Shown: positions 564-62,606 of the stretch, in pieces
Numbering within the stretch: position 1 is the first letter of the stretch
How the letters are laid out: each line of letters opens with the position of its first letter
Origin: a virus
Taxonomy: Duplodnaviria > Caudoviricetes
Strand: one strand, 5' to 3'
IMG/VR virus record: IMGVR_UViG_3300035498_000654
Coordinates: 18,703-82,702 of that record
DNA: 64,000 nucleotides
The notes under the pieces: model-generated
What the model saw: only the letters and a program-made list of their open reading frames with translations
Database searches by the model: none
Told to the model about the DNA's origin: nothing
Translations under genes and position numbers: made by a program

Positions 564-2234
564 ATGGATGATAATAATTTATACAATATAATTTCGGAAT
601 ATTCTAATAAAGGAATAATGGTTAAACTCAGATATGATAATGAGTTAAAAGATTATTTAATAAAAGAAACTTCTTTTTTATATGATGATGCAACATTATC
701 AGAAAGAGTTTATTGCATCAAAAATCATATAACCAAACCTTTATTATGTCCTTATTGTGGTAAGCCAAGAAAGTTTTATCAATTAGATAAAGGTTATCAT
801 GCAACATGTGGTGATAAAGCTTGTAAATCTCAAGGTATAGCCGAAGCGAATAAACGACATGATATATCAAAAGCAATGGCTAAACTTAGAGAAACATATA
901 AGCAAAGAACCGGCTATGAACATAATATGCAAAATCCGGAATTTAAAAAACAATACTTTGATAATATAGAAAAGAAAACTGGTGAACGTTACCATATAGC
1001 ATCTGAGAAATCTAAAATTAATAGAGAAAAATCAATGTTATCTAAGTATGGAACAACAGCAGTTGGTGATTTAATTAAAAATAAAGAAGTGCAAGAATCT
1101 ATTATAGAAAAGTATGGTTCTTTAGATAATTTTTATAAATGTAGAGGATCTATAATAGGCAAATCCAGAAAAGAAAATGATTTAAATCGTCTTATAGAAA
1201 AATTAGATTCATTAGGCTATGAATATATTGATTCTTTTTATAAAGAATTATCAACTGAATATATGCATGTTAAATGTAAAAGATGTGAAAATGTATTTGA
1301 AGTAACCAGAAGAATGGCTAATATCTATTATAATATTGATAATAAAAATTTCTGTCCTTCTTGTGATATAAAAGAAATGCTATATAGATCTAATTTTGAA
1401 AAAGAAATTGTTGATTACATTAAGTCTATATTACCAAATACTTTGGTTTTAACCAATAAGTACATAAACAAATTAGAATGTGATATATCAATACCAGAAT
1501 TAAAAATTGCTATAGAATGTAATGGTTTATACTGGCATAGTGAATTATATAAAGATAAACATTATCATTTAAATAAAAAGAAAGCTATTGAAGAAACTGG
1601 ATATACATTATTGACAATCTGGGAAGACGACTGGAATTTTAAACAAGATATTATAAAGTCCAGATTAAAAGCTAAATTAGGAGTTGTTAATAATAAAATA
1701 TATGCAAGAAAATGTATTATTAAACAAATATCCAATAAAGAATCGTCAGAGTTTTTAAATGAAAATCATCTATATGGTAATATAAATGCGAGTATTAGAT
1801 ATGGCTTATTTTATAATGATGAATTAGTTCAAGTAATAACAATAAGCAAATCAAGGAAAGCTTTATCTAAAAATAATAATGGTTATGAATTATTACGAAT
1901 GGCTACTAAAAAGGATCATATTGTTATTGGTGGTTTTAGTAAACTTATAAAGCAATTTAAACATGATTATAATGATAGTATATTATATAGTTATGTTGAT
2001 TTAAGTTGGAGTAATTTAAATGGCGATGGTTATATAAAAGCTGGTTGGAATTTTATTAAATTATCGGAAAATGAATTTTGGTGGGTTGATGGTTCAGTAA
2101 GAAAACCACATAGAGAGAATAGATTAAAATATCAAAAACATAAAATAAGTGCAGATGATTCAGAAGAAAAAACCATGCATAAAAATAAGTATTACCGGGT
2201 ATTTGGTATAGGCAATTTATTAATGATGATATAA
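564..2234 (+). CDS. Hef-like homing endonuclease (Zn-finger/repeat N-terminus, Vsr/PD-(D/E)xK-like nuclease, Hef C-terminal domain)
   Basis: CPYCG/CKRC/CPSC Zn motifs; ECDISIPELKIAIECNGLYWH..LLTIWEDDW nuclease motif; IYARKC..NHLYG..LLRMATK..VIGGFSKL..SYVDLSW tail. Confidence 0.65.
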   Translation: MDDNNLYNIISEYSNKGIMVKLRYDNELKDYLIKETSFLYDDATLSERVYCIKNHITKPLLCPYCGKPRKFYQLDKGYHATCGDKACKSQGIAEANKRHDISKAMAKLRETYKQRTGYEHNMQNPEFKKQYFDNIEKKTGERYHIASEKSKINREKSMLSKYGTTAVGDLIKNKEVQESIIEKYGSLDNFYKCRGSIIGKSRKENDLNRLIEKLDSLGYEYIDSFYKELSTEYMHVKCKRCENVFEVTRRMANIYYNIDNKNFCPSCDIKEMLYRSNFEKEIVDYIKSILPNTLVLTNKYINKLECDISIPELKIAIECNGLYWHSELYKDKHYHLNKKKAIEETGYTLLTIWEDDWNFKQDIIKSRLKAKLGVVNNKIYARKCIIKQISNKESSEFLNENHLYGNINASIRYGLFYNDELVQVITISKSRKALSKNNNGYELLRMATKKDHIVIGGFSKLIKQFKHDYNDSILYSYVDLSWSNLNGDGYIKAGWNFIKLSENEFWWVDGSVRKPHRENRLKYQKHKISADDSEEKTMHKNKYYRVFGIGNLLMMI

Positions 2235-2237
2235 AAA

Positions 2238-2270
2238 TAAAGGTGTTAGAAATTAATCTAACACCTTTTA
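2238..2270. terminator. Bidirectional intrinsic terminator between convergent genes
   Basis: Stem taaaggtgttaga/tctaacacctttta with A/T tracts on both sides. Confidence 0.7.
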
Positions 2271-2293
2271 TTATATATTATTTGATATTATTA

Positions 2294-4135
2294 TCAAAGA
2301 TTTGCCATATCAACAGCAAAAGTTACATATTGTGTTTCAGGGAAGTAACCTGCATCCACAAGAGCATAACGTGATTTAATTTGCAACTTAGGAGCCATTG
2401 TGTTCTCAGCAATAATTCTTACTGAATCAGCCAAGATATATGGGCAGAAGTGTACACCAGGTTCATCCTTGCCACCTTTACGACCTACACAAACACGGTT
2501 GTCATAACCAGCCATATTAGGATCGCAATATACAGTCATACCAGCAACGGTGCCAACAGGATAAAGCTGACCAGCAGATTGGTTAATAGTATTTTCGATA
2601 GGTGAGAAGCTATAGTGAGCATTTGATTGAAGAGCAGTAGCAACAGTGATGTTAGTTACAACGAATGTACCAGCACCATGACGACCTCTTTGTTGAATCC
2701 AGTTAGAAGCCAAGAGGATGTTGTTATAAATTCTCTTAATCAAAGTATCACGGTTTTCAAATGTTGCATTAGGATTTGAATAGATTGGCTTATAAGGAAG
2801 AGCAATATTAGTATAAGATGTTACTTCATTACCATTGCTATTGTAGTAATTCTGAGGAATTGCAAAAGCAGGAGTCATCTTAGTAGTTGCATCAGGATCG
2901 AAAGTGATGTTCATGTTATTAGCAGGACCTTCAACTTCAACAATCTTAATATGGTTTTTCCAACCGAGACCGAAGATACGAGATGTGATATGACGGTTGA
3001 TAACCTGAGTCAATTCGTTGATAGCCGCGTTTTCAAGCATCTTAACAACATCGATACCCCATTGTTTCTGGAGGTCTTGAACTTGTTCCTGAGTAACAGC
3101 AACAGAAGCAGCGATAGTACCAACAGTTACGTTACGTGTGAAGAACTGGAGTGAAAGCTGGCGAGCAGGAGTCATTTCACCAGTACCACGAGACATAGGA
3201 TCGTAAAGAACTGTACCATCTTGATATGTACCAGTCCAAGGATCTTTATCACGAGCACCTGCACCAGCAAAGCCCATAACTTGATCTTCAAGCATTGAAA
3301 TCAAACGAGGACCAACAACTGTAAGGGTAACACCTTCACCAGTAAGAACAACATCGTCTTTAGCGAAATAATCACCAAGAGATTTAGAACCACTGATTAC
3401 TTTGAACATAGGATCGCCATCGATACGTGACCAACCAATGAATTCTACCTTAAGATCATCAGCAGCAAGAGCGAGACCAGCGGTAAGAACTTTATTCTCC
3501 TTAAGAGCGAGTTTTTCAGCGCCAGCTACGATTTCAACATCAGTAGCAGTTGCAGACTTAACAGCAACCTTGAAAGCTGAAGGAAGACCGTTTGTTGAGA
3601 AAGCAGAACCAGATACATGGCCATTAACCATAGGATTAGCAGATTCAGCATCATAAGCAGGAGTTGCACCGAAAGGTTGTTTTGAACCAGCATATACATA
3701 ATCCATGTAAGGAAGTACACCAGTAGGACCTGCCATAGGAGTTGTATTTACAAGTTCGAAGCCCATTGCCTTAGCACCAACTTTGAGTGCAAGAGGAAGA
3801 AGAGCAGCAAATTTATCACCTGAACCGAGGTTAGTGTGATCTGCATAATCAGCACCAGTTAAAGCGGGACGACCAGCAGGAACAGCGTCACCAACACCTA
3901 CAGTATTGTAAAGAGTTGAATAAGGTGAATATGCACCACCAAGAGCAGAAGAAGCATTAGAACTAAACTGGAATGCATCCTCGTTAAGGTTTTTAGCTGT
4001 GTTATGTGCAACTTGAGACAACCAGCTAAGACGTTCAGGATCCTTAATACCAGTTGTTTTCTCAATCATAGGTGCCCAAGATTCAGTGATTGACTTGGCA
4101 ACACCACGAGTTGTATTTTTTTGATTAAGTTTCAT
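2294..4135 (-). CDS. gp23: Major capsid protein, T4 gp23-like
   Basis: ITESWAP N-terminal leader, PMAGPTGVLPYMDYVY, AINELTQVINR, VHFCPYI, PKLQIKSRYAL motifs match the gp23 family; biased codon use suggests high expression; TATAAATA upstream. Confidence 0.9.
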   Translation of the reverse strand: MKLNQKNTTRGVAKSITESWAPMIEKTTGIKDPERLSWLSQVAHNTAKNLNEDAFQFSSNASSALGGAYSPYSTLYNTVGVGDAVPAGRPALTGADYADHTNLGSGDKFAALLPLALKVGAKAMGFELVNTTPMAGPTGVLPYMDYVYAGSKQPFGATPAYDAESANPMVNGHVSGSAFSTNGLPSAFKVAVKSATATDVEIVAGAEKLALKENKVLTAGLALAADDLKVEFIGWSRIDGDPMFKVISGSKSLGDYFAKDDVVLTGEGVTLTVVGPRLISMLEDQVMGFAGAGARDKDPWTGTYQDGTVLYDPMSRGTGEMTPARQLSLQFFTRNVTVGTIAASVAVTQEQVQDLQKQWGIDVVKMLENAAINELTQVINRHITSRIFGLGWKNHIKIVEVEGPANNMNITFDPDATTKMTPAFAIPQNYYNSNGNEVTSYTNIALPYKPIYSNPNATFENRDTLIKRIYNNILLASNWIQQRGRHGAGTFVVTNITVATALQSNAHYSFSPIENTINQSAGQLYPVGTVAGMTVYCDPNMAGYDNRVCVGRKGGKDEPGVHFCPYILADSVRIIAENTMAPKLQIKSRYALVDAGYFPETQYVTFAVDMANL

Positions 4136-4173
4136 AAATTTAAAAATATTTTTTAGGGTTTAAAACTTCTAAA

Positions 4174-4181
4174 TATTTATA
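4174..4181 (-). promoter_or_regulatory. T4-type late promoter TATAAATA upstream of the capsid gene
   Basis: Exact TATAAATA 38 nt upstream of the ATG. The same motif occurs at 4867-4874(-), 15204-15211(+), 19973-19980(-), 19994-20001(+), 25547-25554(+), 47045-47052(+) and 57118-57125(+). Confidence 0.7.
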
Positions 4182-4508
4182 GAAGATTGTGTAACCAAAT
4201 ATTCAAAAATATTAGTATTTAAAGGTATTTGTATAATATATTTAAAGTGATAATATAATTATTTTTATAATCTCTAAGTATAATTTTAAATTATTCGAAC
4301 CGCAAACTCCATATTTTTTCTCAGAGAAAACCCATCGTGAAATTTTAAAATTATAAAAATTTTAAAGAAAATATTTTAATATTAATCATCTATTAATTAT
4401 CCAATATATGTTTTCTGAAAGGATAACAATATAAGACAAAAATTTAAATACAATTAAATTAATGTTTAATTGGTTGATATATTTATTGTAGTATAAAATT
4501 ACTAATTA

Positions 4509-4796: not shown

Positions 4797-4941
4797 AATA
4801 GTTCGTTTATTGATTTTTAAAAATTTGGTAATTTTGTTGCTTTCTAAATTTTTAATTTTTATAGTATATTTATAACGTTTATAAAATTTTATAAATTTGA
4901 AAATCGAAGACTTATTAAGACTTTTTTAGATTTTATTCATT

Positions 4942-12000: not shown

Positions 12001-13236
12001 ATGCTAAGAGCAGTTAAAATAAGATTATATCCTAACAAAACACAAGAAGTTCAAATTAACAAACTTCTTGGTTGTTGTCGTGTTGTTTATAATCAATGTC
12101 TTGCTCGAAAAATAGAATCTTATAACAAAGAGAATAAAACTGAAAACTTATCGTCTTTAAGTAAGTGGTTTCATCATGATTTGATTAATAATCCAGATTT
12201 TATTTGGTTGAAAGAACAAAACACAAATGTTCTTCAACAATCAATAATGGATATGTTGAATGCTTATAAACGATTCTTTACATTGCATACAGGCTATCCA
12301 AAGTTTAAATCAAAACACGATAATAAACAATCTTGTAGATTTACAATAAATGCTATTTCAAAAAGAAATAACTACCTATCTTATAAATTATCACTTGCAA
12401 ATATAAGAGATATTAAATTTAGATGTAATAAACTATATTCAAAGTACCTTCAAGATAACAAGTCAAATATAAAGTCTGCAACTTTAAGCAAGTTGCCATG
12501 TGGTTAGTATTACTTATCAATCTTAGTTGATGGTTGTTTATTACATAAAGTTAAAGATACTGATAAAATAATTGGCTTTGACCTTGGAGTTAAAAACTTT
12601 ATTACTACATCAGAAGGTAATGTTTTTGAAAACTTACATTTTAAAAAATCAGAATACAAGAAAATTAAGAAACTTCAAAGACAGCTTTCCAAAAAGAAAG
12701 TTGGTTCTAACAACAGAAACAAAGCAAGGATTAAACTTGCAAAAGTATATAAAGTCATAACAGATCGTAAATCAAACTATTTGCATAAGGTGTCTAATTC
12801 ATTAATTGATGAAAATCAAGTCATTTGTATGGAGGACTTAAATGTAAAAGGAATGATTAAAAATCACAGACTTTCAGATTCAATATCTGAAATGAATTTT
12901 GGAGAATTCAGAAGAATACTTGAATACAAGAGTTTATGGTATAATAGAAAGTTAGTTTTTATAGATAGATTTTATCCTTCATCTAAGAGATGCAATCATT
13001 GTGGTTATATTAATAAATCACTTAAATTGCCAGATAGACAATGGACTTGCCCAGACTGCGGATCTATCATTGATAGAGACTATAATGCATCACTTAATAT
13101 CTTAGAAGAAGGCCAAAGAATAATAGGTTGCAGTACAACCAAATTTAAGCTTGTGGACTATCCAACTATGGATGACAAGGAAGTAATTCCCCTAAAAAGT
13201 AGTGATAGGTTGAAGCAAGAAGTTAAAAATGAATAA
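12001..13236 (+). CDS. tnpB: TnpB RNA-guided endonuclease (411 aa; one TAG at 12505-12507 read as Gln)
   Basis: HTH start MLRAVKIRLYPN, RuvC FDLG/MEDL/DRDYNA, CxxC..CPxCG Zn finger; the frame is continuous across the TAG. Confidence 0.9.
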
Positions 13237-31500: not shown

Positions 31501-32120
31501 GAAATATATTTAAAATCAGTAAAATCTACATGATTCTCAATATCATCTTTTAATGAATTGAATACACCAGGACGATATGTTAATAATAAAACATTTTTAT
31601 ATCCAAGTGTTTTAACCGCTTGTAAAAATGTAAAATTCTTTCCGAATCTCATTTTTGCTGCTAATAAAAATTCACCATTATTATTTTTAAAATATTCAAC
31701 AATTTTATCATGAGCAGCTTGTTGAGGTTTACGCATTTTATATGCATTTAATCTACGGCTACCATATAAAAATTCATGCAGTAATGCTTTCGGAATATCT
31801 GGATTTTCAAATTCAAACCATTCACGATCTGCATCTTCTCTATACTTTAAATAACCTTTATTATGTTCCAAAAAATCATGGAATTTCTTATCAACGTGTT
31901 CAACATCTGTCATAAAATCATCAGGAACACTTTCACACCAAACTAATACATTTGGCTCAGAATTAGATTCTTTATCCTGTTGTTTTATACGAATCAAAGC
32001 CGAATCTTTCATAGATTCAGCTTCTATACCAGTATCGCCAATCTTATAAATTGGATTTTTTCCTAATTGTGTACGATAACTATTTAATTCTTTATGCTGA
32101 TAACAATATATGGTTCTCAT
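28551..32120 (-). CDS. Restriction-modification-like fusion: T5orf172/GIY-YIG-like nuclease, SF2 (ResIII) helicase, Eco57I-type methyltransferase
   Basis: IYKIGDT..REWFEF; LAAKMRFGKN, TDECHYG, ISGTPF, QAMFRGQS; VQNPPY, IIEPATWL. Confidence 0.75.
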   Translation of the reverse strand: MRTIYCYQHKELNSYRTQLGKNPIYKIGDTGIEAESMKDSALIRIKQQDKESNSEPNVLVWCESVPDDFMTDVEHVDKKFHDFLEHNKGYLKYREDADREWFEFENPDIPKALLHEFLYGSRRLNAYKMRKPQQAAHDKIVEYFKNNNGEFLLAAKMRFGKNFTFLQAVKTLGYKNVLLLTYRPGVFNSLKDDIENHVDFTDFKYISFSDNKDKLTLSDNNVNIVTCSVQMAGYRYNDETNDFEKDNNTTNKLFKKNLKTLASYKWDLIVTDECHYGTTTENFNSICNTLKCSKILYISGTPFKQINEFKDNNLFTYTYLDEQDAEDYKMPKLRQYAIKMDSKLIDYYHKNIEMVDYPNMKKLFQADANGDFKYGDISKQTIKFIIDKLNNTNNGEFKHGLALMDYKDSVKAIVKFINDTYKNIHAIDGSNDIVNVDKLKEIIKRNDNKGIKTITFSCGRFIEGVTISEWNTVIMLQDGASPERYFQAMFRGQSPAEGKEDFYVFDYNPERMLSLNYGFISQLSKCKKSYKNIDKEVIIKEWLKAAPIIRWDDQLSDQQFVEVNYRDIENAYFKNDKIGASKFCDSSLYNLYHNINITQSEIKDITSCLDKSFNGKILNKDPKSVSVNDNGISGAKNRVSVISVNSDNTQFNKPDNKNNKKYSISELVALVKNHMHYISRYIVIYNCQNTSDIIKTLEDNIDNNQLIFERSTGITNYQVFKIIIDKHIIKEDEFNYSISQLWEELNKVSNMDANTKYATYKRWNLFNYRAIPQSICDNIINDIDSSIFKNKNIKICDLTIENDYIINILIDKFMDGLSNDILDRKERNNYILNNIIYACTTSDITKRIITKICNIKNIYSCQVKNKNIEYIDNMPKFDYIVQNPPYSGTLHIDFFNKGLDLLNKNGKMIIIEPATWLVNIRKNGNAKTIYEPLKNRIKNHVSKIIVDNYTKEFNIRIFAGLSITNIDLSKEYDTIDYSICGYKQKVNSVYDCNLIGEYNTIWSILNKLLSYKDMVSDHLYKKDNIILNDQKYLQYNFIGVPLITARSHGNRFDELFSKYYYRLCGYSDVLDELPKNKNGDEIKYLIQGTKEELENYKHLVYNTNLPIFLSYVLTIDQNNNVLPFIPWLVDKKYTTEEIYKLFKFTDDEISLIEKTCKKYSIESVFAKRMYDGPSSEITDDEVKDYIDNL

Positions 32121-32126
32121 AGTATA

Positions 32127-33380
32127 TTAAAATATGAACAAAACTTGTTTACTTTTAATTTCTTGCTTCATTCTATCACTACTTTTTAGGTTCATTTCTG
32201 AACGATCATCCATAGTTGGATAGTCCACAAGCTTAAATTCGGCTGTACTGCAACCTATTATTCTTTGGCCTTCTTCTAAAATATTTAATGCGGCATTGTA
32301 GTCTCTATCTATGATAGAACCGCAATCAGGACAAGTCCATTGTCTATCACTTAATTTAAGTGACTTATTAATAAAACCACAATGATTGCATCTTTTAGAG
32401 GAAGGATAGTATCTGTCGATAAAAACTAATCGTCTATTATACCATAGACTTTTGTATTCAAGTATTCTTCTAAATTTACCAAAATTCATTTCAGATATTG
32501 AATCTGAAAGCTTATGGTTTTTAACCATTCCTTTTACATTTAAGTCCTCCATACAAATGACTTGATTTTCATCAATTAATAAATTAGACACCTTATGCAA
32601 ATAGTTTGATTTACGATCTGTTATGACTTTATATACTTTCGCAAGTTTAATTCTTGCTTTGTTTCTATTATTGGATCCAACTTTCTTTTTGGAAAGCTGT
32701 CTTTGTAACTTCTTTATTTTCTTATACTCAGATTTCTTAAAGTGCAGATTTTCAAAGACTTCTCCTTCTGATGTTGTAATAAAATTCTTAACACCCAGAT
32801 CAATACCAATTATACTGTTAGTATTTTTGACTTTATGTAATAAGCCACCATCAACTAAAATTGATAGATAATACTCACCACAAGGTAGCTTACTTAAAGT
32901 TGCTGACTTTATATTAAGTTTGTTATCTTGAAGATATTTTGAGTATAATTTGCTACATTTAAATTTAATATCTCTTATGTTTGCAAGAGACAATCTATAT
33001 GATAGATAGTTATTACGTTTAGAAATGGCATTTATTGTAAATCTACAAGATTGTTTATTATCATGCTTTGATTTAAACTTTGGATAACCATTATGTTGGA
33101 TAAAGAACCTTTTATAAGCATTCAACATATCCATTATTGATTGTTGAAGAACATTTGTATTTTGTTCTTTCAGCCATATAAATTCTGGATTATTAATTAA
33201 ATCATGATGAAACCAATAACTAAGAGAAGTTAAATTTTCTGTTTTCTTTTCAGCTTTATAAAATTCAATTTTACGAGCAAGACATTGATTATAAACAAAA
33301 CGACAACAACCAAGAAGTTTGTTAATTTGAACTTCTTGAGTCTTATTTGGATATAATCTTATTTTTATTGCTCTTAGCAT
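32127..33380 (-). CDS. tnpB: TnpB RNA-guided endonuclease
   Basis: HTH, GIDLG/MEDL/DRDYNAA RuvC triad, Zn finger; right end ttttaatatact abuts the ATG of the R-M gene. Confidence 0.92.
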   Translation of the reverse strand: MLRAIKIRLYPNKTQEVQINKLLGCCRFVYNQCLARKIEFYKAEKKTENLTSLSYWFHHDLINNPEFIWLKEQNTNVLQQSIMDMLNAYKRFFIQHNGYPKFKSKHDNKQSCRFTINAISKRNNYLSYRLSLANIRDIKFKCSKLYSKYLQDNKLNIKSATLSKLPCGEYYLSILVDGGLLHKVKNTNSIIGIDLGVKNFITTSEGEVFENLHFKKSEYKKIKKLQRQLSKKKVGSNNRNKARIKLAKVYKVITDRKSNYLHKVSNLLIDENQVICMEDLNVKGMVKNHKLSDSISEMNFGKFRRILEYKSLWYNRRLVFIDRYYPSSKRCNHCGFINKSLKLSDRQWTCPDCGSIIDRDYNAALNILEEGQRIIGCSTAEFKLVDYPTMDDRSEMNLKSSDRMKQEIKSKQVLFIF

Positions 33381-40663: not shown

Positions 40664-41224
40664 ATGAATGATGATTATAAGAAATATCATAAACCAGTAA
40701 TCGATTCTGATAAAGTTAAATTTCATCAAGGATACTATTATCCAAAGCATCCTGAAAAATGTTTAACAAAGGAAAATGTTTATAGGTCTGGTTGGGAATA
40801 TTTCTTTATGAGATATTGTGATGATTCTCCTAATATAGTAAGGTGGGCAAGCGAACCTGTTAAAGTTCAATATTTGAATCCGGTTGCTAATATGCAGAAA
40901 TGTGTCAAAGAAGGATTGGATCCTTAGAATCCGTTAAATTGGAAAGTTTGTAATTATTATACAGATTTCTGGATTGAAATGAAAGGATAGAATAATACAA
41001 TAAGAAAAATTTTTATAGAGATTAAACCTTATGCTCAGACATAGCAACCAAAACCAATTAATGAAAATGCATCTATGAAAGAACATAAACGTTATAATAG
41101 AGAAGCAGAAACTTATTTGGTTAATATACAAAAATGGAAAGCTGCCACTAAAGAATTTCAATCCAGAGGAGCTGAATTTATGGTTGTCACTGAAAAAACC
41201 TTAAAGAAGCTTGGCATGGAATAA
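40664..41224 (+). CDS. gp4: Head-completion nuclease, T4 gp4-like (186 aa, 3 in-frame TAG)
   Basis: YRSGWE..CDDSPNIVRWASE..YYTDFWI..IEIKPYAQT*QP..NIQKWKAA..FMVVTE matches gp4 only with TAG read-through. Confidence 0.85.
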
Positions 41225-41257
41225 TATTATAAAAATATAAATTTCTCAATACGAATT

Positions 41258-41713
41258 ATGATTTCAGAAAAGAAGATGGATAAAATAATCAGAGAAACAT
41301 ATACATTATTATATAAGTATGCATATCCAAGTGCAGACTTTAACTCTTTATGCGAAAATTGTTGCACATATAGAGATAGAAATAATGATGATAAATTAAT
41401 AACACTTGATAAACCATTATCCATTAATGAATGTAAACTTCGGAATTATACAAAGGATCTTCAGTATGATAGATTTTTTCTACCACATGAAGTAATGGTT
41501 AATATAATAGAGAAACAAAAGAAATTATATAAAATACCGTCATGGCAAGCTAAACAATTTGATTGGTGTATGTATTTAGGTGCTGGGCCAACATCAGGAT
41601 ATAATTCATGGAAAATATATCATCCAGGTGTTTCTTTAACTGATTTACAACAAATTGTGGATAATACTGATTATGGTGAATATAAACCTGAAAAGCAAAT
41701 AATTGTTAAATAA
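41258..41713 (+). CDS. Hypothetical protein
   Basis: 151-aa ORF. Confidence 0.6.
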   Translation: MISEKKMDKIIRETYTLLYKYAYPSADFNSLCENCCTYRDRNNDDKLITLDKPLSINECKLRNYTKDLQYDRFFLPHEVMVNIIEKQKKLYKIPSWQAKQFDWCMYLGAGPTSGYNSWKIYHPGVSLTDLQQIVDNTDYGEYKPEKQIIVK

Positions 41714-41781
41714 TTAATTTATATTTTGCTATATCGGAGATTATACTTAACTTTGTACTGTTAAAATTAAAAACAACAAAT

Positions 41782-42240
41782 ATGTATAACATTACAGACA
41801 AAGTCAGAGAGCTTCTTGGTCAAGCCCCTAAACAAAAACCAAACCCTTATACAGTATTGAATACCTCAACAGGTATATCAGCTAAGTCTGCATATATGCG
41901 CACCAAGTATGGAATGGATACTACACAAACCGCACTATTGAAGAAATTCTTTAATGATGTGAATTCTTTGGTTGCTGCTAAGAGTCTTGATGGTTCATAC
42001 TGCTGTATGATAGAAATTGATAAAGACATTAAACAATTTATTCCTGAAATCATTGAGCATTTCCAAAATAAACTTGGTTATACATTGGTTGTTATTGATA
42101 GAGATACTGTCATTACCAATAAGGTAACAGGTGATAACAAACAACTTGATATTGCAAGTGATTCAGCATTTGTTATCCTTATGTGGAGTAATGCATTTAT
42201 TTCTGATGTTGAATCTTCAAAAGTAACAGAAGAAAAATAA
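41782..42240 (+). CDS. Hypothetical protein
   Basis: 152-aa ORF with TAACTTTG promoter element upstream. Confidence 0.65.
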   Translation: MYNITDKVRELLGQAPKQKPNPYTVLNTSTGISAKSAYMRTKYGMDTTQTALLKKFFNDVNSLVAAKSLDGSYCCMIEIDKDIKQFIPEIIEHFQNKLGYTLVVIDRDTVITNKVTGDNKQLDIASDSAFVILMWSNAFISDVESSKVTEEK

Positions 42241-42248
42241 AAAATCTA

Positions 42249-43463
42249 ATGTTTCGAACAATAAAAATAAGGTTATATCCTAACAAAACACAAGAAGTTC
42301 AGATCAATAAACTTCTTGGTTGTTATCGTGTTGTCTATAATCAATGTCTTGCTCGAAAAATTGAATCTTATAACAAAGAGAAGAAAACTGAAAACTTATC
42401 TTCTTTAAGTAAATGGTTTCATCATGATTTGATTAATAACCCAGATTTTATATGGTTGAAAGAACAAAACACTAAAGTTCTTAAACAATCCATAATGGAT
42501 ATGTTAAATGCTTATAAAAATTTCTTTGAACGCCATATTGGTTATCCAAAGTTTAAATCAAAGCATGATAATAAGCAATCTTGTAGATTTGAAATAGCAA
42601 GTATATCTAAATGTAATAACTACCTATCTTATAGATTATCACTTGCAAATATAAGAGATATTAAATTTAAATGTAGTAAGTTATATTCAAAATATCTTCA
42701 GGATAATAAGCCAAATATAAAGTCGGCGACTTTAAGTAAACTACCATGTGGTGAGTATTACTTATCACTCTTAGTTGACGGTTGTCTAACTCATAAAGTC
42801 AAAGACACAAACAACATGGTTGGTATAGATCTTGGTATTAAGAATTTTATTATAACATCAAATGGAAATGTTTTTGAAAACCAACACTTTAAGAAATCAG
42901 AATATAAGAAAATAAAGAAGTTACAAAGACAACTTTCTAAGAAAGTTAAAGGCTCTAACAACAGAAATAAAGCAAGGATCAAACTTGCAAAAGTATATAA
43001 AACTATAACTGATTGTAAATCAAACTATTTACATAAAATATCCAATATACTAATTGATGAAAACCAAGTCATTTGTATGGAGGACTTAAATGTAAAAGGA
43101 ATGCTTAAGAATCATAAGCTTGCTGATTCAATATCAGAAATGAATTTTAGAGAATTTAGAAGAATATTGCAGTATAAAAGTTTGTGGTATAATAGACGAT
43201 TAGTCTTTATAGATAGATATTATCCTTCATCTAAGAGATGCAATCATTGTGGTTATATTAATAAGTCACTTAAATTGTCAGATAGACAATGGACTTGTCC
43301 TGACTGTGGTTCTATCATAGATAGAGATTATAATGCTGCATTGAATATTTTAGAAGAAGGACAAAGAATAATAAGTTGTAATGTAAATCCTATCTACATG
43401 GATAAACATTCAGAAATGAACCTAAAAAGTAGCTGTAGATTGAAGCAAGTAGTTAAAAACTGA
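42249..43463 (+). CDS. tnpB: TnpB RNA-guided endonuclease with shortened/diverged omega-RNA region
   Basis: GIDLG/MEDL/DRDYNAA, Zn finger; ATG 8 nt after the previous stop; 3' region lacks the gcagtac..gtggactatcc segment present in other copies. Confidence 0.92.
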   Translation: MFRTIKIRLYPNKTQEVQINKLLGCYRVVYNQCLARKIESYNKEKKTENLSSLSKWFHHDLINNPDFIWLKEQNTKVLKQSIMDMLNAYKNFFERHIGYPKFKSKHDNKQSCRFEIASISKCNNYLSYRLSLANIRDIKFKCSKLYSKYLQDNKPNIKSATLSKLPCGEYYLSLLVDGCLTHKVKDTNNMVGIDLGIKNFIITSNGNVFENQHFKKSEYKKIKKLQRQLSKKVKGSNNRNKARIKLAKVYKTITDCKSNYLHKISNILIDENQVICMEDLNVKGMLKNHKLADSISEMNFREFRRILQYKSLWYNRRLVFIDRYYPSSKRCNHCGYINKSLKLSDRQWTCPDCGSIIDRDYNAALNILEEGQRIISCNVNPIYMDKHSEMNLKSSCRLKQVVKN

Positions 43464-43580
43464 ACACACTTAACTTTGTTCAGATTTTAATATAATATTA
43501 ATTAAAAAATATTATATAGACAATTTTATTATTAATGCTATAATAAAATGTAAGTGAATACAAGAGTACATTGACTAAAT

Positions 43581-43664
43581 GGGGGATTGGCGTAATCGGT
43601 AGCCGCGACATGCTTAAACCGTGTTGTTCAATTGAACGTATGGGTTCAAGTCCCATATCCCCTA
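43581..43664 (+). tRNA. trnL: tRNA-Leu(TAA)
   Basis: Acceptor gggggat/atcccct, anticodon stem acatg/cgtgt with loop CT-TAA-AC, long variable arm, T-loop ttcaagt. Confidence 0.9.
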
Positions 43665-43693
43665 CAATTAATACTTTATAAGTATATTTAAAA

Positions 43694-43840
43694 AATAATA
43701 GGTTGCAGTACAACCGAATTTACGCTTGTGGACTATCCTCTTATGGATGACCGTTCAGAAATGAACCTAAAAAGTAATGATAGGATGAATCAAGAAATTA
43801 AAAATGAATAAATCTAATTTTGTTCAGATTTTAATATACT
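43694..43840 (+). ncRNA. Stand-alone TnpB omega-RNA scaffold/right end without a tnpB ORF
   Basis: Near-copy of the last ~145 nt of tnpB copies 1, 2 and 4 (aataataggttgcagtac..ttgttcagattttaatatact); no upstream tnpB sequence. Confidence 0.7.
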
Positions 43841-43927
43841 GTAGAGAGTATATACGAACAACCTAAGTCATTGATTATGATATGGTTATGACATAGTCCA
43901 AGCTGTAGTAGGCAAAACTATAGTAAG
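43841..43927 (+). other. 3' half of a group I intron (P7-P8-P9-omega G)
   Basis: gtagagagtatatacg (R-like), aacc/ggtt P8, atgac-atagtcc (S-like), P9 hairpin ctgtagt/actatag, terminal G directly before the tRNA exon. Confidence 0.65.
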
Positions 43928-43977
43928 AAAATCTCTTGGCCATTGCGGCTGTGCGGGTTCGAGTCCCGCTGGCGGTA
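43928..43977 (+). pseudogene. 3' exon of a tRNA-Leu (anticodon probably TAA); 5' exon not found in window
   Basis: aaaa-tctct anticodon 3' strand, long variable arm, gcggg-ttcgagt-cccgc T-arm, acceptor strand tggcggt-a. Confidence 0.7.
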
Positions 43978-43991
43978 CTAATAGCAAGAAT

Positions 43992-44030
43992 TTAAAATCT
44001 GAACAATAATTAGAATTGTTCAGATTTTAA
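43992..44030. repeat. Isolated 15-bp perfect hairpin derived from the TnpB right end
   Basis: ttaaaatctgaacaa-taattagaa-ttgttcagattttaa followed by tatac. Confidence 0.7.
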
Positions 44031-44070
44031 TATACAAATATTTTATTATTAACTAAATTGAAAATATAAT

Positions 44071-45159
44071 ATGTCAATGAATAATGTAGAATTTAATTAT
44101 TTTCAAATAATTGGCAATAGAATAATAAATGATTGGAAACTTCCAATCTCTATTGGTTCAGTGAAAGATCTGAATCAATTTTTCTATTTTAATACTTTTA
44201 AAAAATTTTTGGCATATACCAATAATCTTGATAGATGGATGACATTAATTCAAAATAGTAGTAATGCATACACATCTCCAGAAGATTTTGCAAATGATTA
44301 TTATGAATATCGTAATATAATTATTAATGGTATAAAAAATAGTGAATCATATCAAGCATTTAATAATGATGATATGACACAATTTATTGTTAAATCAAAT
44401 TATTCATTACCAAAGAGATCTAACATTTATAATAATGATGTTAATTTAAATTTATATTATATTTCAATTGATCTAAAGGCTGCTAATTTTACAGCACTTC
44501 GATTTTATAATCCTAATATATTTGGTATATTTGATAATGGTATACCAGTAAAAACATACGAGGATTTAATTAAGTTTTATATTCCAGATAATAAAGAAGT
44601 TCTTCAGAATTATTTTAAACAATCTAAATATGATAGACAAGTTATATTTGGACAACTTAATCCTCGTAGACATATTGCTGTTGAAACATATATAATTAAA
44701 TCATTATTGAATAATTTATGGGATGTTATTAAAAATCATACAGATTTCAATAGTATTGAATGTATAAATTCAGATGAGATTATTCTTTCATATAATACAT
44801 TACAGAAAGAATCTACGATTGCTGATATAAACAAAGTTATTATTGATTTTTGTAAAGAGAATATTGGAAATATAACACCAGATTGTTTTAAAGTAACAGA
44901 ATATAAATTAAAACATTATATTGTTAATAATACAGATACACAAGCAAAATGTTTTGATTTTTATCATAAGTATTTTATGTATCCTACAGATAATTCTTCA
45001 TTAACAGATGAAGATTTGTTTAAATGTATACCTAAACAATATTTCTGCTTAATAACAGCATTATTTAATGGAAAGCCTGTTGAAGAATGGATGAAGAAAA
45101 TATATGTTAATAATATGGAATTTATATTGGATTCTGCATTAGAGATAATTGACGTTTAA
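44071..45159 (+). CDS. Hypothetical protein with possible polymerase palm-like motifs
   Basis: SIDLKAANF and INSDEII resemble motifs A and C; weak evidence. Confidence 0.55.
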   Translation: MSMNNVEFNYFQIIGNRIINDWKLPISIGSVKDLNQFFYFNTFKKFLAYTNNLDRWMTLIQNSSNAYTSPEDFANDYYEYRNIIINGIKNSESYQAFNNDDMTQFIVKSNYSLPKRSNIYNNDVNLNLYYISIDLKAANFTALRFYNPNIFGIFDNGIPVKTYEDLIKFYIPDNKEVLQNYFKQSKYDRQVIFGQLNPRRHIAVETYIIKSLLNNLWDVIKNHTDFNSIECINSDEIILSYNTLQKESTIADINKVIIDFCKENIGNITPDCFKVTEYKLKHYIVNNTDTQAKCFDFYHKYFMYPTDNSSLTDEDLFKCIPKQYFCLITALFNGKPVEEWMKKIYVNNMEFILDSALEIIDV

Positions 45160-49924: not shown

Positions 49925-51166
49925 ATGTTTCGATCAATCAAAATAAGATTATATCCAAATAGCAATCAAGAAGTTCAAATTAATAAACTTCTTGGTTGTT
50001 ATCGTGCGGTTTATAATCAATGTCTTGCTCGAAAGATTGAATCTTATAAAACAAAGAAGAAAACAGAAAATCTAACTTCACTTGGTCATTGGTTTCATCA
50101 TGATTTGATTAATAATCCAGATTTTATATGGTTAAAGGAACAAAACACTAAGGTTCTTAAACAATCCATAATAGATATGTTAAGTGCATATAAACGGTTC
50201 TTTACATTGCATACAGGTTATCCAAAGTTTAAATCAAAACATGATAATAAACAATCTTGTAGATTTGAAATAGCAAGTATATCTAAACGTAATAACTATC
50301 TATCATATAAATTATCACTTGCTAACATTAAGAATATTAAGTTTAAATGTAGTAAATCATATTCAAAATACCTTCAAGATAACAAGTCAAATATAAAGTC
50401 AGCAACTTTAAGTAAACTGCCATGTGGTGAATACTACCTATCAATTTTGATTGATGGTTCTTTATTACATAAAGTTAAAGATACTGATAAAATGATTGGT
50501 ATTGATCTTGGGGTTAAAGACTTTGTTATCACCTCAAATGGTGAAGTTTTCAAAAACCGACACTTTAAGAAATCAGAATACAATAAAATCAAAAAGTTAA
50601 ATAAACAACTTTCTAAAAAGAAAGTTGGATCTAACAATAGAAACAAAGCAAGGATTAAGCTTGCAAAAGTATATAAGAAGATAACTGACAGAAAATCAAA
50701 CTATTTGCATAAAGTAAGTAATTCATTAATTGACGAAAACCAAGTCATTTGTATGGAGGACTTAAATGTGAAGAGCATGATTAAAAACCATAGACTCGCT
50801 GATTCAATATCTGAATTAAACTTTGGTGAGTTTAGAAGAATACTTGAATACAAGAGTTTATGGTATAATAGAAAGTTAGTTTTTATAGATAGATTTTATC
50901 CTTCATCTAAGAGATGCAATCAATGTGGTTATATTAATAAGACACTTAAGTTATCTGATAGACAATGGACTTGCCCAGAATGTGGTTCTATTATAGAACG
51001 TGACTATAATGCATCATTAAATATATTAGAAGAAGGACAAAGAATAATAGGTTGCAGTACAGCCGAATTTACGCTCGTGGACTATCCAACTATGGATGAC
51101 AAGGAAGTAATTCCCCTAAAAAGTAGTGGTAGAATGAAGCAAGAAGTTAAAAGTGAACAATTCTAA
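49925..51166 (+). CDS. tnpB: TnpB RNA-guided endonuclease
   Basis: GIDLG/MEDL/ERDYNA, Zn finger, full omega-RNA region with right-end hairpin to ~51190. Confidence 0.92.
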   Translation: MFRSIKIRLYPNSNQEVQINKLLGCYRAVYNQCLARKIESYKTKKKTENLTSLGHWFHHDLINNPDFIWLKEQNTKVLKQSIIDMLSAYKRFFTLHTGYPKFKSKHDNKQSCRFEIASISKRNNYLSYKLSLANIKNIKFKCSKSYSKYLQDNKSNIKSATLSKLPCGEYYLSILIDGSLLHKVKDTDKMIGIDLGVKDFVITSNGEVFKNRHFKKSEYNKIKKLNKQLSKKKVGSNNRNKARIKLAKVYKKITDRKSNYLHKVSNSLIDENQVICMEDLNVKSMIKNHRLADSISELNFGEFRRILEYKSLWYNRKLVFIDRFYPSSKRCNQCGYINKTLKLSDRQWTCPECGSIIERDYNASLNILEEGQRIIGCSTAEFTLVDYPTMDDKEVIPLKSSGRMKQEVKSEQF

Positions 51167-54063: not shown

Positions 54064-54138
54064 TGCCTCATAGTGTAATGGTTAGCACGAGGGACTCTAA
54101 CTCCCTACGTCTCTGTTCGAACCAGAGTGGGGCGACCA
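54064..54138 (+). tRNA. Amber suppressor tRNA (anticodon CTA), Gln-type body
   Basis: Anticodon stem aggga/tccct with loop CT-CTA-AC, T-arm ctctg-ttcgaac-cagag, U1 start, encoded CCA. Confidence 0.92.
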
Positions 54139-54550: not shown

Positions 54551-54724
54551 ATGAAGACAATTCTAATCATTATCGCAATTTTTTATGTGATATATTTTGC
54601 ATGGTTCATTTATGAAATTGTACATGCACCTTTAATATCAGATGAAGATGATTTAACGATAGAAGGTTTTACACAAGAGGAAATTGATAATTATCTTAAT
54701 AATCGGGGCCAACGTGGAAATTGA
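54551..54724 (+). CDS. 57-aa single-TM protein whose 3' end overlaps the tmRNA 5' end
   Basis: MKTILIIIAIFYVIYFAWFIYEIV..; directly downstream of promoter 54483-54504. Confidence 0.5.
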   Translation: MKTILIIIAIFYVIYFAWFIYEIVHAPLISDEDDLTIEGFTQEEIDNYLNNRGQRGN

Positions 54725-55070
54725 TTACAATCATAGTTGGTATAGGAATCATGTAGCGTCAACTGACTTTAAGTTGAAAAACTTCAAATTTAAACGGCGA
54801 ATATAACGAATATCGCATGGCTGCCTAACCTTGGAGGTTGGATGATTTTATTAGCCTGAGTGTGTACGACTTGCACTTGTAAACAGAATCAAAAAGTCGT
54901 GAAATGTAAACAAGGTAAGGTTTAATGAAAAAATAGTTAGTGAATATTGAAACCAACCTGTACCTGTAACAAGGTTTGATGAAAAAGACATTTACTAACA
55001 AAACTTGAAACATGTATAAATTCTTATACTGATTCTTTGTAAGACCGGGGTTCGACTCCCCGTGGCTCCA
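54705..55070 (+). ncRNA. ssrA: tmRNA, tag peptide (A)GEYNEYRMAA
   Basis: Acceptor ggggcca/tggctcc-a, T-arm cgggg-ttcgact-ccccg, tag ORF 54796-54828 ending MAA-TAA, similar in form to Bacteroidota GE..Y..AA tags. Confidence 0.9.
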
Positions 55071-55232
55071 CAATAATGATTGGACGGACGTTGTAAAACG
55101 TTGTTGGTATTATGGTTAGGCTGTTTGTGAAAATAGCCTAACTTTTTATTTTATAGTAAATACATTATCAAAATAAACATATACATGATAATTCTCTATA
55201 ATATAAAGAATTATATAAACATATAAATTAAA

Positions 55233-62232: not shown

Positions 62233-62606
62233 GGTCCGGTAGCTCAGCTGGATAGAGCAACAGTCTTTTGATTAATAGGAGCGTTTATGTGGAATATTCA
62301 AAAAGTTATAAGTAGTGATAATTATATCATAGTCAATTTTTGAATACAAATGAATTAATTTCATGGATTAACACATGAACTGAAGGACGCTATATCGGTG
62401 AACGTCTTAACATGTTATACGCAATATAATGATGAAGAAAACGCCGAGGGAACTTGCTTATAAGAGGCTCCGTAGAGACTTTACGCGTCCCACCTGAAAT
62501 GGTGAAGACAAAGTCCAGACTACAACAATATTAATAATATTGGCTATAGAAATATAGAGTAGCAAAGCTAAACTGTGGGTCATGAGTTCGAATCTCATCC
62601 GGATCA
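62233..62606 (+). tRNA. trnR: tRNA-Arg(TCT) interrupted by a group I intron (exons 62233-62267 and 62568-62606)
   Basis: Spliced anticodon arm acagt-CTT|CTAA-actgt, Arg-type D-loop ctggatagagc, acceptor ggtccgg/ccggatc. Confidence 0.88.
62268..62567 (+). ncRNA. Group I self-splicing intron, ORF-less, 300 nt
   Basis: P1 with U-G at the 5' splice site, P3 ggacgc/gcgtcc, P7 gactt/aagtc, P8 cacc/ggtg, terminal G. Confidence 0.85.

Follow-up and report, generated by a model that had tools for sequence, protein, structure and literature searches.

The DNA at positions 43841-43977 of the analysed stretch was identified as the orphan 3' end of an intron-bearing tRNA-Leu(UAA) gene. It consisted of the last third of a group I intron (43841-43927, + strand) joined to a tRNA 3' exon (43928-43977, + strand), and it was directly preceded by the right end of a TnpB element. 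The stub is probably (at about 0.8) a non-functional relic, dead both as a tRNA and as a ribozyme; we infer the order of events that produced it, the mechanism of recombination and its transcription.

The stretch (the window, 64,000 nucleotides) corresponded to C1:18703-82702 of one 82,702-bp viral contig, which had a G+C content of 28% and was estimated by CheckV to be about 15% complete. A 724-aa protein of the window matched only the Prevotella Lak megaphages in the phage collections (38-40% identity over one fifth of its length), and the omega-RNA relic was 85% identical to Lak-A1, Lak-A2, and Lak-C1. These matches point to a distant Lak-like huge phage as the source, most of whose genome would lie outside the contig. 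ARAGORN called a tRNA-Leu(taa) (43581-43665), a suppressor tRNA with the CTA anticodon, a tmRNA, and two further tRNAs in the window. The amber suppressor tRNA was located at 54064-54138 and labelled Pyl by ARAGORN, and the phage-borne tmRNA at 54705-55071; both presumably fit TAG recoding as in Lak-type phages.

The tRNA-Leu remnant and its group I intron

The exon corresponded to nucleotides 35-76 of a tRNA-Leu(UAA). It began with A35-A38 from 43928, followed by the 5-nt 3' strand of the anticodon stem (43932-43936), a 16-nt variable region (long variable arm), the T arm (43953-43969), the 7-nt 3' strand of the acceptor stem (43970-43976), and the discriminator A (43977). A Bacteroidales-type tRNA-Leu(TAA) in contig L001 had the same layout. 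Contig L109 was located via its downstream gene (78% amino-acid identity), and ARAGORN called a tRNA-Leu(taa) there (L109 5751-5836) that is intact and has no intron. Alignment showed that 43928-43980 matched the 3' half of this gene at 51 of 53 positions. The exon, with its long variable arm and T arm, was thus the orthologue of the 3' half of the L109 gene. In L109 this gene sits between homologues of ORF 41782-42240 and ORF 44071-45159 of the window. The synteny and the 51/53 identity settle the identity of the exon, as the sequence-only reading had assigned it, and indicate that an entire tRNA-Leu gene once stood at the window locus. Neither ARAGORN nor the Rfam tRNA model called a tRNA at 43841-43977, and the acceptor, D, and anticodon stems were unpaired, with their 5' strand absent from the contig.

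The locus was arranged in the order of promoter-like stretch, foreign tRNA-Leu(UAA), 24 nt, orphan scaffold, and stub. The promoter-like stretch (43517-43550, + strand) had 11 of 12 consensus matches, with TG, and occurred once in the window. It was conserved with L109, where it lies upstream of the orthologous tRNA-Leu. In the window it was directly followed by the intact tRNA-Leu(UAA) (43581-43665, + strand), which stood in the place of the lost 5' exon, 260 nt upstream of the stub. The acceptor stem of this gene was unrelated to that of the stub, which agrees with the earlier observation that the two do not pair. The ancestral promoter now heads a different tRNA-Leu, which indicates that the former content of the site (5' exon, P1-P6, and a tnpB ORF if there was one) was probably replaced, beyond mere interruption. 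Searches of IMG/VR and phage records for the replacement tRNA-Leu gave unrelated D-arm matches or none, and no relative with it was found. A perfect 16-bp hairpin (43992-44035, + strand) carrying the right-end terminal motif was located 15 nt 3' of the tRNA stub and represents either the terminator of the unit or a solo right-end relic, the third at the locus.

The intron piece was the 3' third of an IC3-type tRNA group I intron. According to the family alignment (A1), J6/7 and the 5' strand of P7 occupied 43841-43850 (P7 5' strand itself 43846-43850) and P3' occupied 43855-43859. P8 was formed by 43867-43871 and 43877-43881, J8/7 lay between the P8 hairpin and P7' (43894-43898), and P9 was formed by 43903-43909 and 43917-43923. 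The terminal G (43927) was immediately 5' of A35. The same alignment bore out the earlier statement that the segment from P7 to P9, with the terminal G, is joined to a tRNA 3' exon, and corrected the pairing that had been drawn for P8. The complete P3-P8 catalytic core with the P1 and P2 substrate helices was lacking; only J6/7 to P9 was present, and the partner of P3 was absent. Folding of the stub alone gave z = -0.63.

Comparative analysis showed that 43840-43927 was identical at 78 of 88 positions (88.6%) to the 3' part of the intron in L055, the best relative of the stub, where the intron-bearing tRNA-Leu is complete and contains an HNH-type ORF. This homology of the 3' domain, together with the G at the exon border, assigns the piece to the group I introns. 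A pattern of the intron core (J6/7-P7, 10 free bases, and the start of J3/8-P8) matched the window once, at 43841-43869, with 0.00 matches expected from shuffles. It recovered 106 IMG/VR loci and 46 bacterial/MAG loci, nearly all of them group I introns in tRNA genes, and nearly all ran on to a terminal G and then to a tRNA 3' exon (AAAATC-type). The loci were mostly of the Leu(UAA) type, with some of the Ile and Arg types, which are known from proteobacteria. Introns of the same family were also seen in the tRNA-Leu(UAA) genes of Bacteroidales MAG contigs (L232, L235, L238, L240, L246, L256, L265, L268, and L274) from Paludibacteraceae, Prevotellaceae, and Bacteroidaceae. The lineage of the probable hosts would thus draw on the same intron pool as the phages, unless these MAG contigs are binned phage DNA.

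Rfam scans of 41000-45000, both at the gathering threshold and by E-value, gave zero group I matches, and the stub searched alone gave a 5'-truncated match to RF00028 (8 bits, model positions 182-253). Rfam was insensitive for this tRNA intron family, since the intact introns of L055 and L031 also failed the gathering threshold; the ORF-less L031 matched RF00028 over its full length (33 bits, E 8.9e-7), under the gathering score. The intron of contig L110, described below, was likewise not detected by Rfam in L110 1700-3250 with E up to 1. Standard scans are silent because the family matches RF00028 below the gathering score, and ARAGORN and Rfam at the gathering threshold thus overlook intron-bearing tRNAs in these phages. 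The intron core was absent from Lak-A1 (541 kb) with up to 2 mismatches allowed, and blastn against published phages matched only the omega-RNA part (Lak-A, Lak-C) and a Bacteroidales-like tRNA-Leu.

The P7 helix of the window had GAGTA opposite TAGTC, so that the 5-bp helix is interrupted at its centre by a G.G mismatch, with the G at 43848; an intact P7 was thus lacking. Among 88 distinct relatives, GACTA was always opposite TAGTC (at least 70 cases, three single-base variants), and GAGTA was always opposite TACTC or TATTC (TAYTC; 11 cases), whereas the combination of the window was found in none (0/88). The mismatch noted from the sequence was therefore real and unique, but its reading as decay is less favoured. 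The G was the sixth nucleotide of the right-end flank, inside the 19-nt junction common with L110, and its arrival with the flank of the element would explain it better than random decay, an argument that rests on one base. The alternative, a lone C-to-G change in a decaying pseudogene, would be expected in roughly 4% of cases given the divergence of about 11% from L055. A search of sequencing runs returned only three freshwater runs, each with 4-5% of the words and none of them the source of the window.

The missing 5' half

Neither the 5' exon nor the 5' half of the intron was found on either strand of the 82.7-kb contig, which confirms the absence stated in the sequence-only reading. Exact acceptor words (exon regex) gave three matches on the contig, all in coding sequences and without tRNA features. 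The 35-nt 5' exon of L109 gave no match in a fuzzy search of the contig with up to 10 substitutions. An nhmmer profile of the 5' core (140 nt 5' of J6/7, built from 87 distinct relatives) had a sole match on the contig, at about 62377-62452, in the intron of a tRNA-Arg(UCU) gene; this match served as a positive control and offered no partner for the stub. In the tRNA-Arg(UCU) gene (62233-62606), a group I intron of about 300 nt without an ORF follows U34, and exons and core are visible by eye; the gene was found by the profile with an E of 0.0097 and was missed by ARAGORN and by Rfam at the gathering threshold.

A 5' half may exist outside the contig, in the remaining ~85% of the genome. With the 5' exon and P1-P6 encoded there, the two RNAs could trans-splice into a second tRNA-Leu(UAA). 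In favour of such a split gene, the contig covers no more than about 15% of the genome, and the stub has a well-formed T arm and variable arm as well as well-formed P8, P9, and terminal G. However, L109 has the entire gene at the same place, so that the 5' half appears to have been lost and not moved, and an intact tRNA-Leu(UAA) with the same anticodon is adjacent. Moreover, the G.G mismatch in the middle of P7 is unique among the 88 relatives, and a 150-nt omega RNA precedes J6/7 in a stub without an extra pairing arm to join the halves. Trans-splicing is therefore very improbable. The P7 mismatch, the synteny with L109, and the adjacent tRNA-Leu(UAA) favour a relic over trans-splicing, which was also the preference of the sequence-only reading. 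As a relic, the stub cannot fold as a tRNA because the 5' strands of the acceptor, D, and anticodon stems are missing, and its lack of P1-P6 and of the partner of P3, together with the broken P7, prevents folding as a ribozyme.

The orphan omega RNA and a complete invaded intron

The orphan TnpB right end (43690-43842, + strand) was an omega-RNA scaffold composed of the last ~38 codons of tnpB, preceded by a stop, and the terminal hairpin. An adjacent tnpB ORF, as found in OMEGA elements, was lacking, only these codons being retained. Both homology (85% identity to Lak-A1) and folding supported the scaffold: the RNAalifold consensus of 11 scaffolds (alignment A2) contained 35 pairs, 10 with compensatory changes, and all were kept in the orphan. 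The right ends of the family followed the consensus up to ATACTGT and diverged beyond it. The junction between element and intron was therefore placed at 43840-43842, where 2-3 nt shared with J6/7 can be assigned to either partner, and the would-be guide begins at 43843.

Three intact tnpB genes were present in the window, mutually 80-83% identical and each encoding HTH, OrfB_IS605, TNB, RuvC D-E-D, and zinc finger. Copy A (42249-43494 including its own right end, + strand; ORF 42249-43463) encodes 404 aa, and 18 nt are deleted within its omega-RNA region. The second comprises ORF 49925-51166 (element to 51192), and the third, on the minus strand, comprises ORF 32127-33380 (element 32119-33380). 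A fourth copy (~12898-13101) was truncated. No TnpA of either type was found on the contig. Homology among the copies started at the ATG, without a conserved left end, and the left flanks of 13 aligned copies (16 elements examined) shared no motif; with left end and motif unconserved, no TAM could be derived. The orphan scaffold was 87.5% identical to that of the L126/L136 lineage, nearer than to the window's own copies, and the earlier proposal that the gene was split by recombination between tnpB ends was not supported.

The intron core was found 3' of the right end in none of the 80 tnpB loci checked. In L126 (full tnpB) and L136 (internal deletion, same site), the right flank opens with the first 9 nt of that of the window, in a non-intron context. 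A 13-mer equal to the J6/7-P7 consensus of the intron was noticed in L136 (~4907-4921) and also in L126, at the end of an unrelated ORF and about 85 nt 5' of the tnpB element (L136 5009-5329). This arrangement may represent a guide-directed ectopic insertion.

A pattern spanning the junction was matched by one IMG/VR contig, L110 (279.7 kb), which is also the contig of metagenome locus L141. The corresponding scan of metagenomes gave 30 loci, mostly chance 18-mers, of which only L141 and L126/L136 were relevant. In L110, the interrupted gene (intron at about 2184-3110) opened with the 5' exon of a tRNA-Leu and the 5' intron core (nhmmer E 6e-7). The decayed 3' end of a tnpB came next, carrying an orphan scaffold, and was followed by the 19-nt junction, P7, P3', an enlarged P8, P7', P9, and the 3' exon. 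Unusually, the exon seems to have C at position 33. The 19-nt junction of right end and intron core was identical between the window and L110, and the two orphan scaffolds were 79% identical. In L110, P3 (TCTCC) pairs with P3' (GGAGA) and P7 (GAGTA) with P7' (TATTC) across an insert of about 250 nt, which suggests that the halves of the ribozyme are mutually adapted. Beyond its first 15 nt, the intron piece of the window resembled L055, unlike L110.

The search among relatives for an invaded intron, which the sequence-only reading had proposed, thus led to L110, where the tRNA-Leu and its intron are complete and the omega RNA stands at the identical junction. An invasion of the intron by TnpB is supported by this contig. 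Only two loci among ~150 introns, the window and L110, had an orphan omega RNA inside or abutting such an intron. L110 is a candidate for a ribozyme that folds around an embedded guide RNA, comparable to the balance of splicing and guide function in IStrons.

Just upstream of the omega-RNA-bearing tRNA-Leu, L110 has a second interrupted tRNA-like gene (~1757-1990), in which a Leu-type 5' half is separated from a T arm by some 170 nt that lack the IC3 core motif. L046, a 332-kb phage contig, was tried as a further example of an invaded intron and rejected. Its IS605-type tnpA-tnpB (1700-3172) lies directly upstream of an intron-bearing tRNA-Leu(UAA) (3451-4225; intron with HNH ORF), adjacent to it and not nested in it.

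An artefact or a chance resemblance was also considered. The window has four + strand copies of the 19-nt right-end motif, and contigs mis-joined at this repeat, or an attP-like copy of a tRNA 3' end, could place the same pieces side by side. However, the same 19-nt junction occurs in L110, an independent 280-kb contig from another sample, and the repeats are short, with flanks only 69-85% identical. An attP-like duplication is opposed by the fusion of the tRNA piece to an intron, not to an integrase-type core, and by the intact gene in place in L109. Both versions were rejected, and such an origin is still less probable than a split gene.

The following history of the relic is proposed. Judged by its state in L109, the ancestral phage carried an ordinary tRNA-Leu(UAA) at the locus. 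In the lineage of the window, this tRNA-Leu would have carried an L055-type group I intron after U34. A TnpB/omega-RNA element would then have entered the intron at the boundary of P6 and J6/7, the slot of HNH genes in sister introns, most likely through recombination with an L110-type intron that had itself been invaded before. On the right-hand side, the crossover would have fallen within the ~15-nt conserved core, so that the GAGTA of the donor was joined to the TAGTC of a GACTA-type recipient. In a later or the same event, the segment that runs from the 5' end of the tRNA up to the scaffold of the omega RNA, with the 5' exon, P1-P6, and the tnpB ORF, would have been replaced by an unrelated tRNA-Leu(UAA), leaving the new tRNA-Leu behind the old promoter. 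The stub is probably still transcribed behind the new tRNA. Its present role, if any, would be that of its first ~16-20 nt as the guide of the orphan omega RNA.

Whether this relic was kept as the guide of a functional orphan omega RNA has to be weighed separately, since such a role is compatible with a stub that is dead as tRNA and as intron. In this predicted scheme, promoter, tRNA-Leu, omega RNA, and guide would be co-transcribed, RNase P and RNase Z would free the tRNA, and a resident TnpB would load the omega RNA. Uninvaded introns of the family in co-infecting phages would be cut. Either the cassette would then be copied in, breaking the allele with the intron while supplying a spare tRNA, or the competitors would be damaged. 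The orphan scaffold keeps every consensus helix, in contrast to the adjacent scaffold of copy A with its 18-nt deletion, and the three TnpB copies of the contig have intact D-E-D and zinc finger. The unit is bracketed by a strong promoter-like site and a terminal hairpin, a second orphan scaffold stands at the same position in L110, and 13 nt of the would-be guide are matched by natural introns of the GAGTA type. A native promoter followed by a foreign tRNA is the residue expected from a two-crossover replacement, and the scheme accounts jointly for this arrangement, the intact scaffold, and the chimeric P7.

Several observations count against a working guide. No TAM could be derived and the left end is unconserved; the orphan scaffold is of the L126 lineage, whose TnpB is just 55% identical to the resident copies; a donor with the cassette was not found in IMG/VR and phage records; and only two such loci occur among ~150 introns. 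A candidate working guide is therefore unlikely, although far from negligible. Slightly more doubtful is the wider proposal that a TnpB guide module in huge gut phages parasitises tRNA group I introns and that the window holds a drive or weapon cassette against intron-bearing tRNA-Leu alleles. If it were true, the alleles of co-infecting phages would be destroyed and replaced by the cassette, and the stub would be left over from one such event while also serving as the guide today.

Comparison with known systems

IC3 tRNA introns occur in the tRNA-Leu(UAA) of cyanobacteria and plastids and, in the Azoarcus type, in tRNA-Ile. The stub resembles them in its insertion between U34 and A35 of tRNA-Leu(UAA), its core motifs of J6/7-P7 and J3/8, its short P8 and P9, and its terminal G; we take this resemblance to extend to the IC3 introns of Azoarcus (tRNA-Ile) and Anabaena. 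The core pattern also recovered the tRNA introns of Polynucleobacter, Novosphingobium, and Oligoflexus and the tRNA-Leu introns of Bacteroidales. In contrast to these introns, the window has the last third only, with a mismatched P7 and with the right end of a TnpB element in the place of P6.

The omega RNA of the window occupies the same slot as HNH homing-endonuclease ORFs in the P6 extension. The sequence-only reading had stated this generally, and it holds for part of the family: the HNH ORFs stop 4 nt before J6/7 in L007, L051, L062, L070, and L107, but the ORF lies further upstream of J6/7 in L055, L016, and L013. Protein homing endonucleases act on the exon junction of intronless genes and thereby spread the intron. 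A guide taken from the right flank, by comparison, would recognise the intron core and would spread only the TnpB module among introns. The guide of TnpB is the DNA that flanks the right end (PMC10055086; bioRxiv 10.1101/2023.11.20.567912). In the window this flank is the intron core (J6/7-P7-P3'), and TnpB would therefore target introns and could not spread the intron into intronless tRNA-Leu genes. The earlier suggestion that TnpB served as the homing nuclease of the intron is thus not supported, and TnpB is better seen as parasitising the intron than as providing for its homing.

The TnpB/omega-RNA homing systems of ISDra2 and Geobacillus IS605 (PMC10055086) share with the window a scaffold at the 3' end of tnpB and a guide taken from the flank, as well as resident copies with intact RuvC and zinc finger and covarying scaffold helices. 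They differ in that the scaffold of the window is without ORF, TnpA, and left end, and that its target lies inside another selfish element. A limited search of the literature found no account of TnpB or omega RNA between P6 and J6/7 of a tRNA intron.

IStrons (CdISt1, BcISt1, and CboIStron) are group I introns fused to IS200/IS605 or IS607 with TnpB; their introns belong to subgroup IA2 (CdISt1 and the elements of C. difficile and C. botulinum) and lie mostly in protein-coding genes (PMC4227781; bioRxiv 10.1101/2023.11.20.567912). Both IStrons and the window combine a TnpB/omega-RNA element with a group I ribozyme in one nested unit, with the omega RNA beside sequence of the catalytic core or splice site. 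In IStrons the IS follows P9.2 and the transposon ends are the splice sites (PMC4227781; bioRxiv 10.1101/2023.11.20.567912), whereas in the window the right end stops at 43842, before J6/7. The intron of the window is of the tRNA IC3 type with the element between P6 and J6/7, its 3' splice site (43927/43928) is 85 nt past the right end, and it has neither TnpA nor a conserved left end. The earlier view that the arrangement differs from IStrons therefore stood (PMC4227781).

As a pseudogene with an intact tRNA-Leu(UAA) next to it, the stub itself matters little. It does reveal that a TnpB/omega-RNA module can fill the homing-endonuclease slot of a tRNA group I intron. With the most conserved sequence of the ribozyme as its guide, such a module could, through a single guide, reach hundreds of related introns both in the phages and in the Bacteroidales that host them. 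This architecture is set apart from IStrons by the class of the intron, the host gene, the insertion point, and the missing TnpA.
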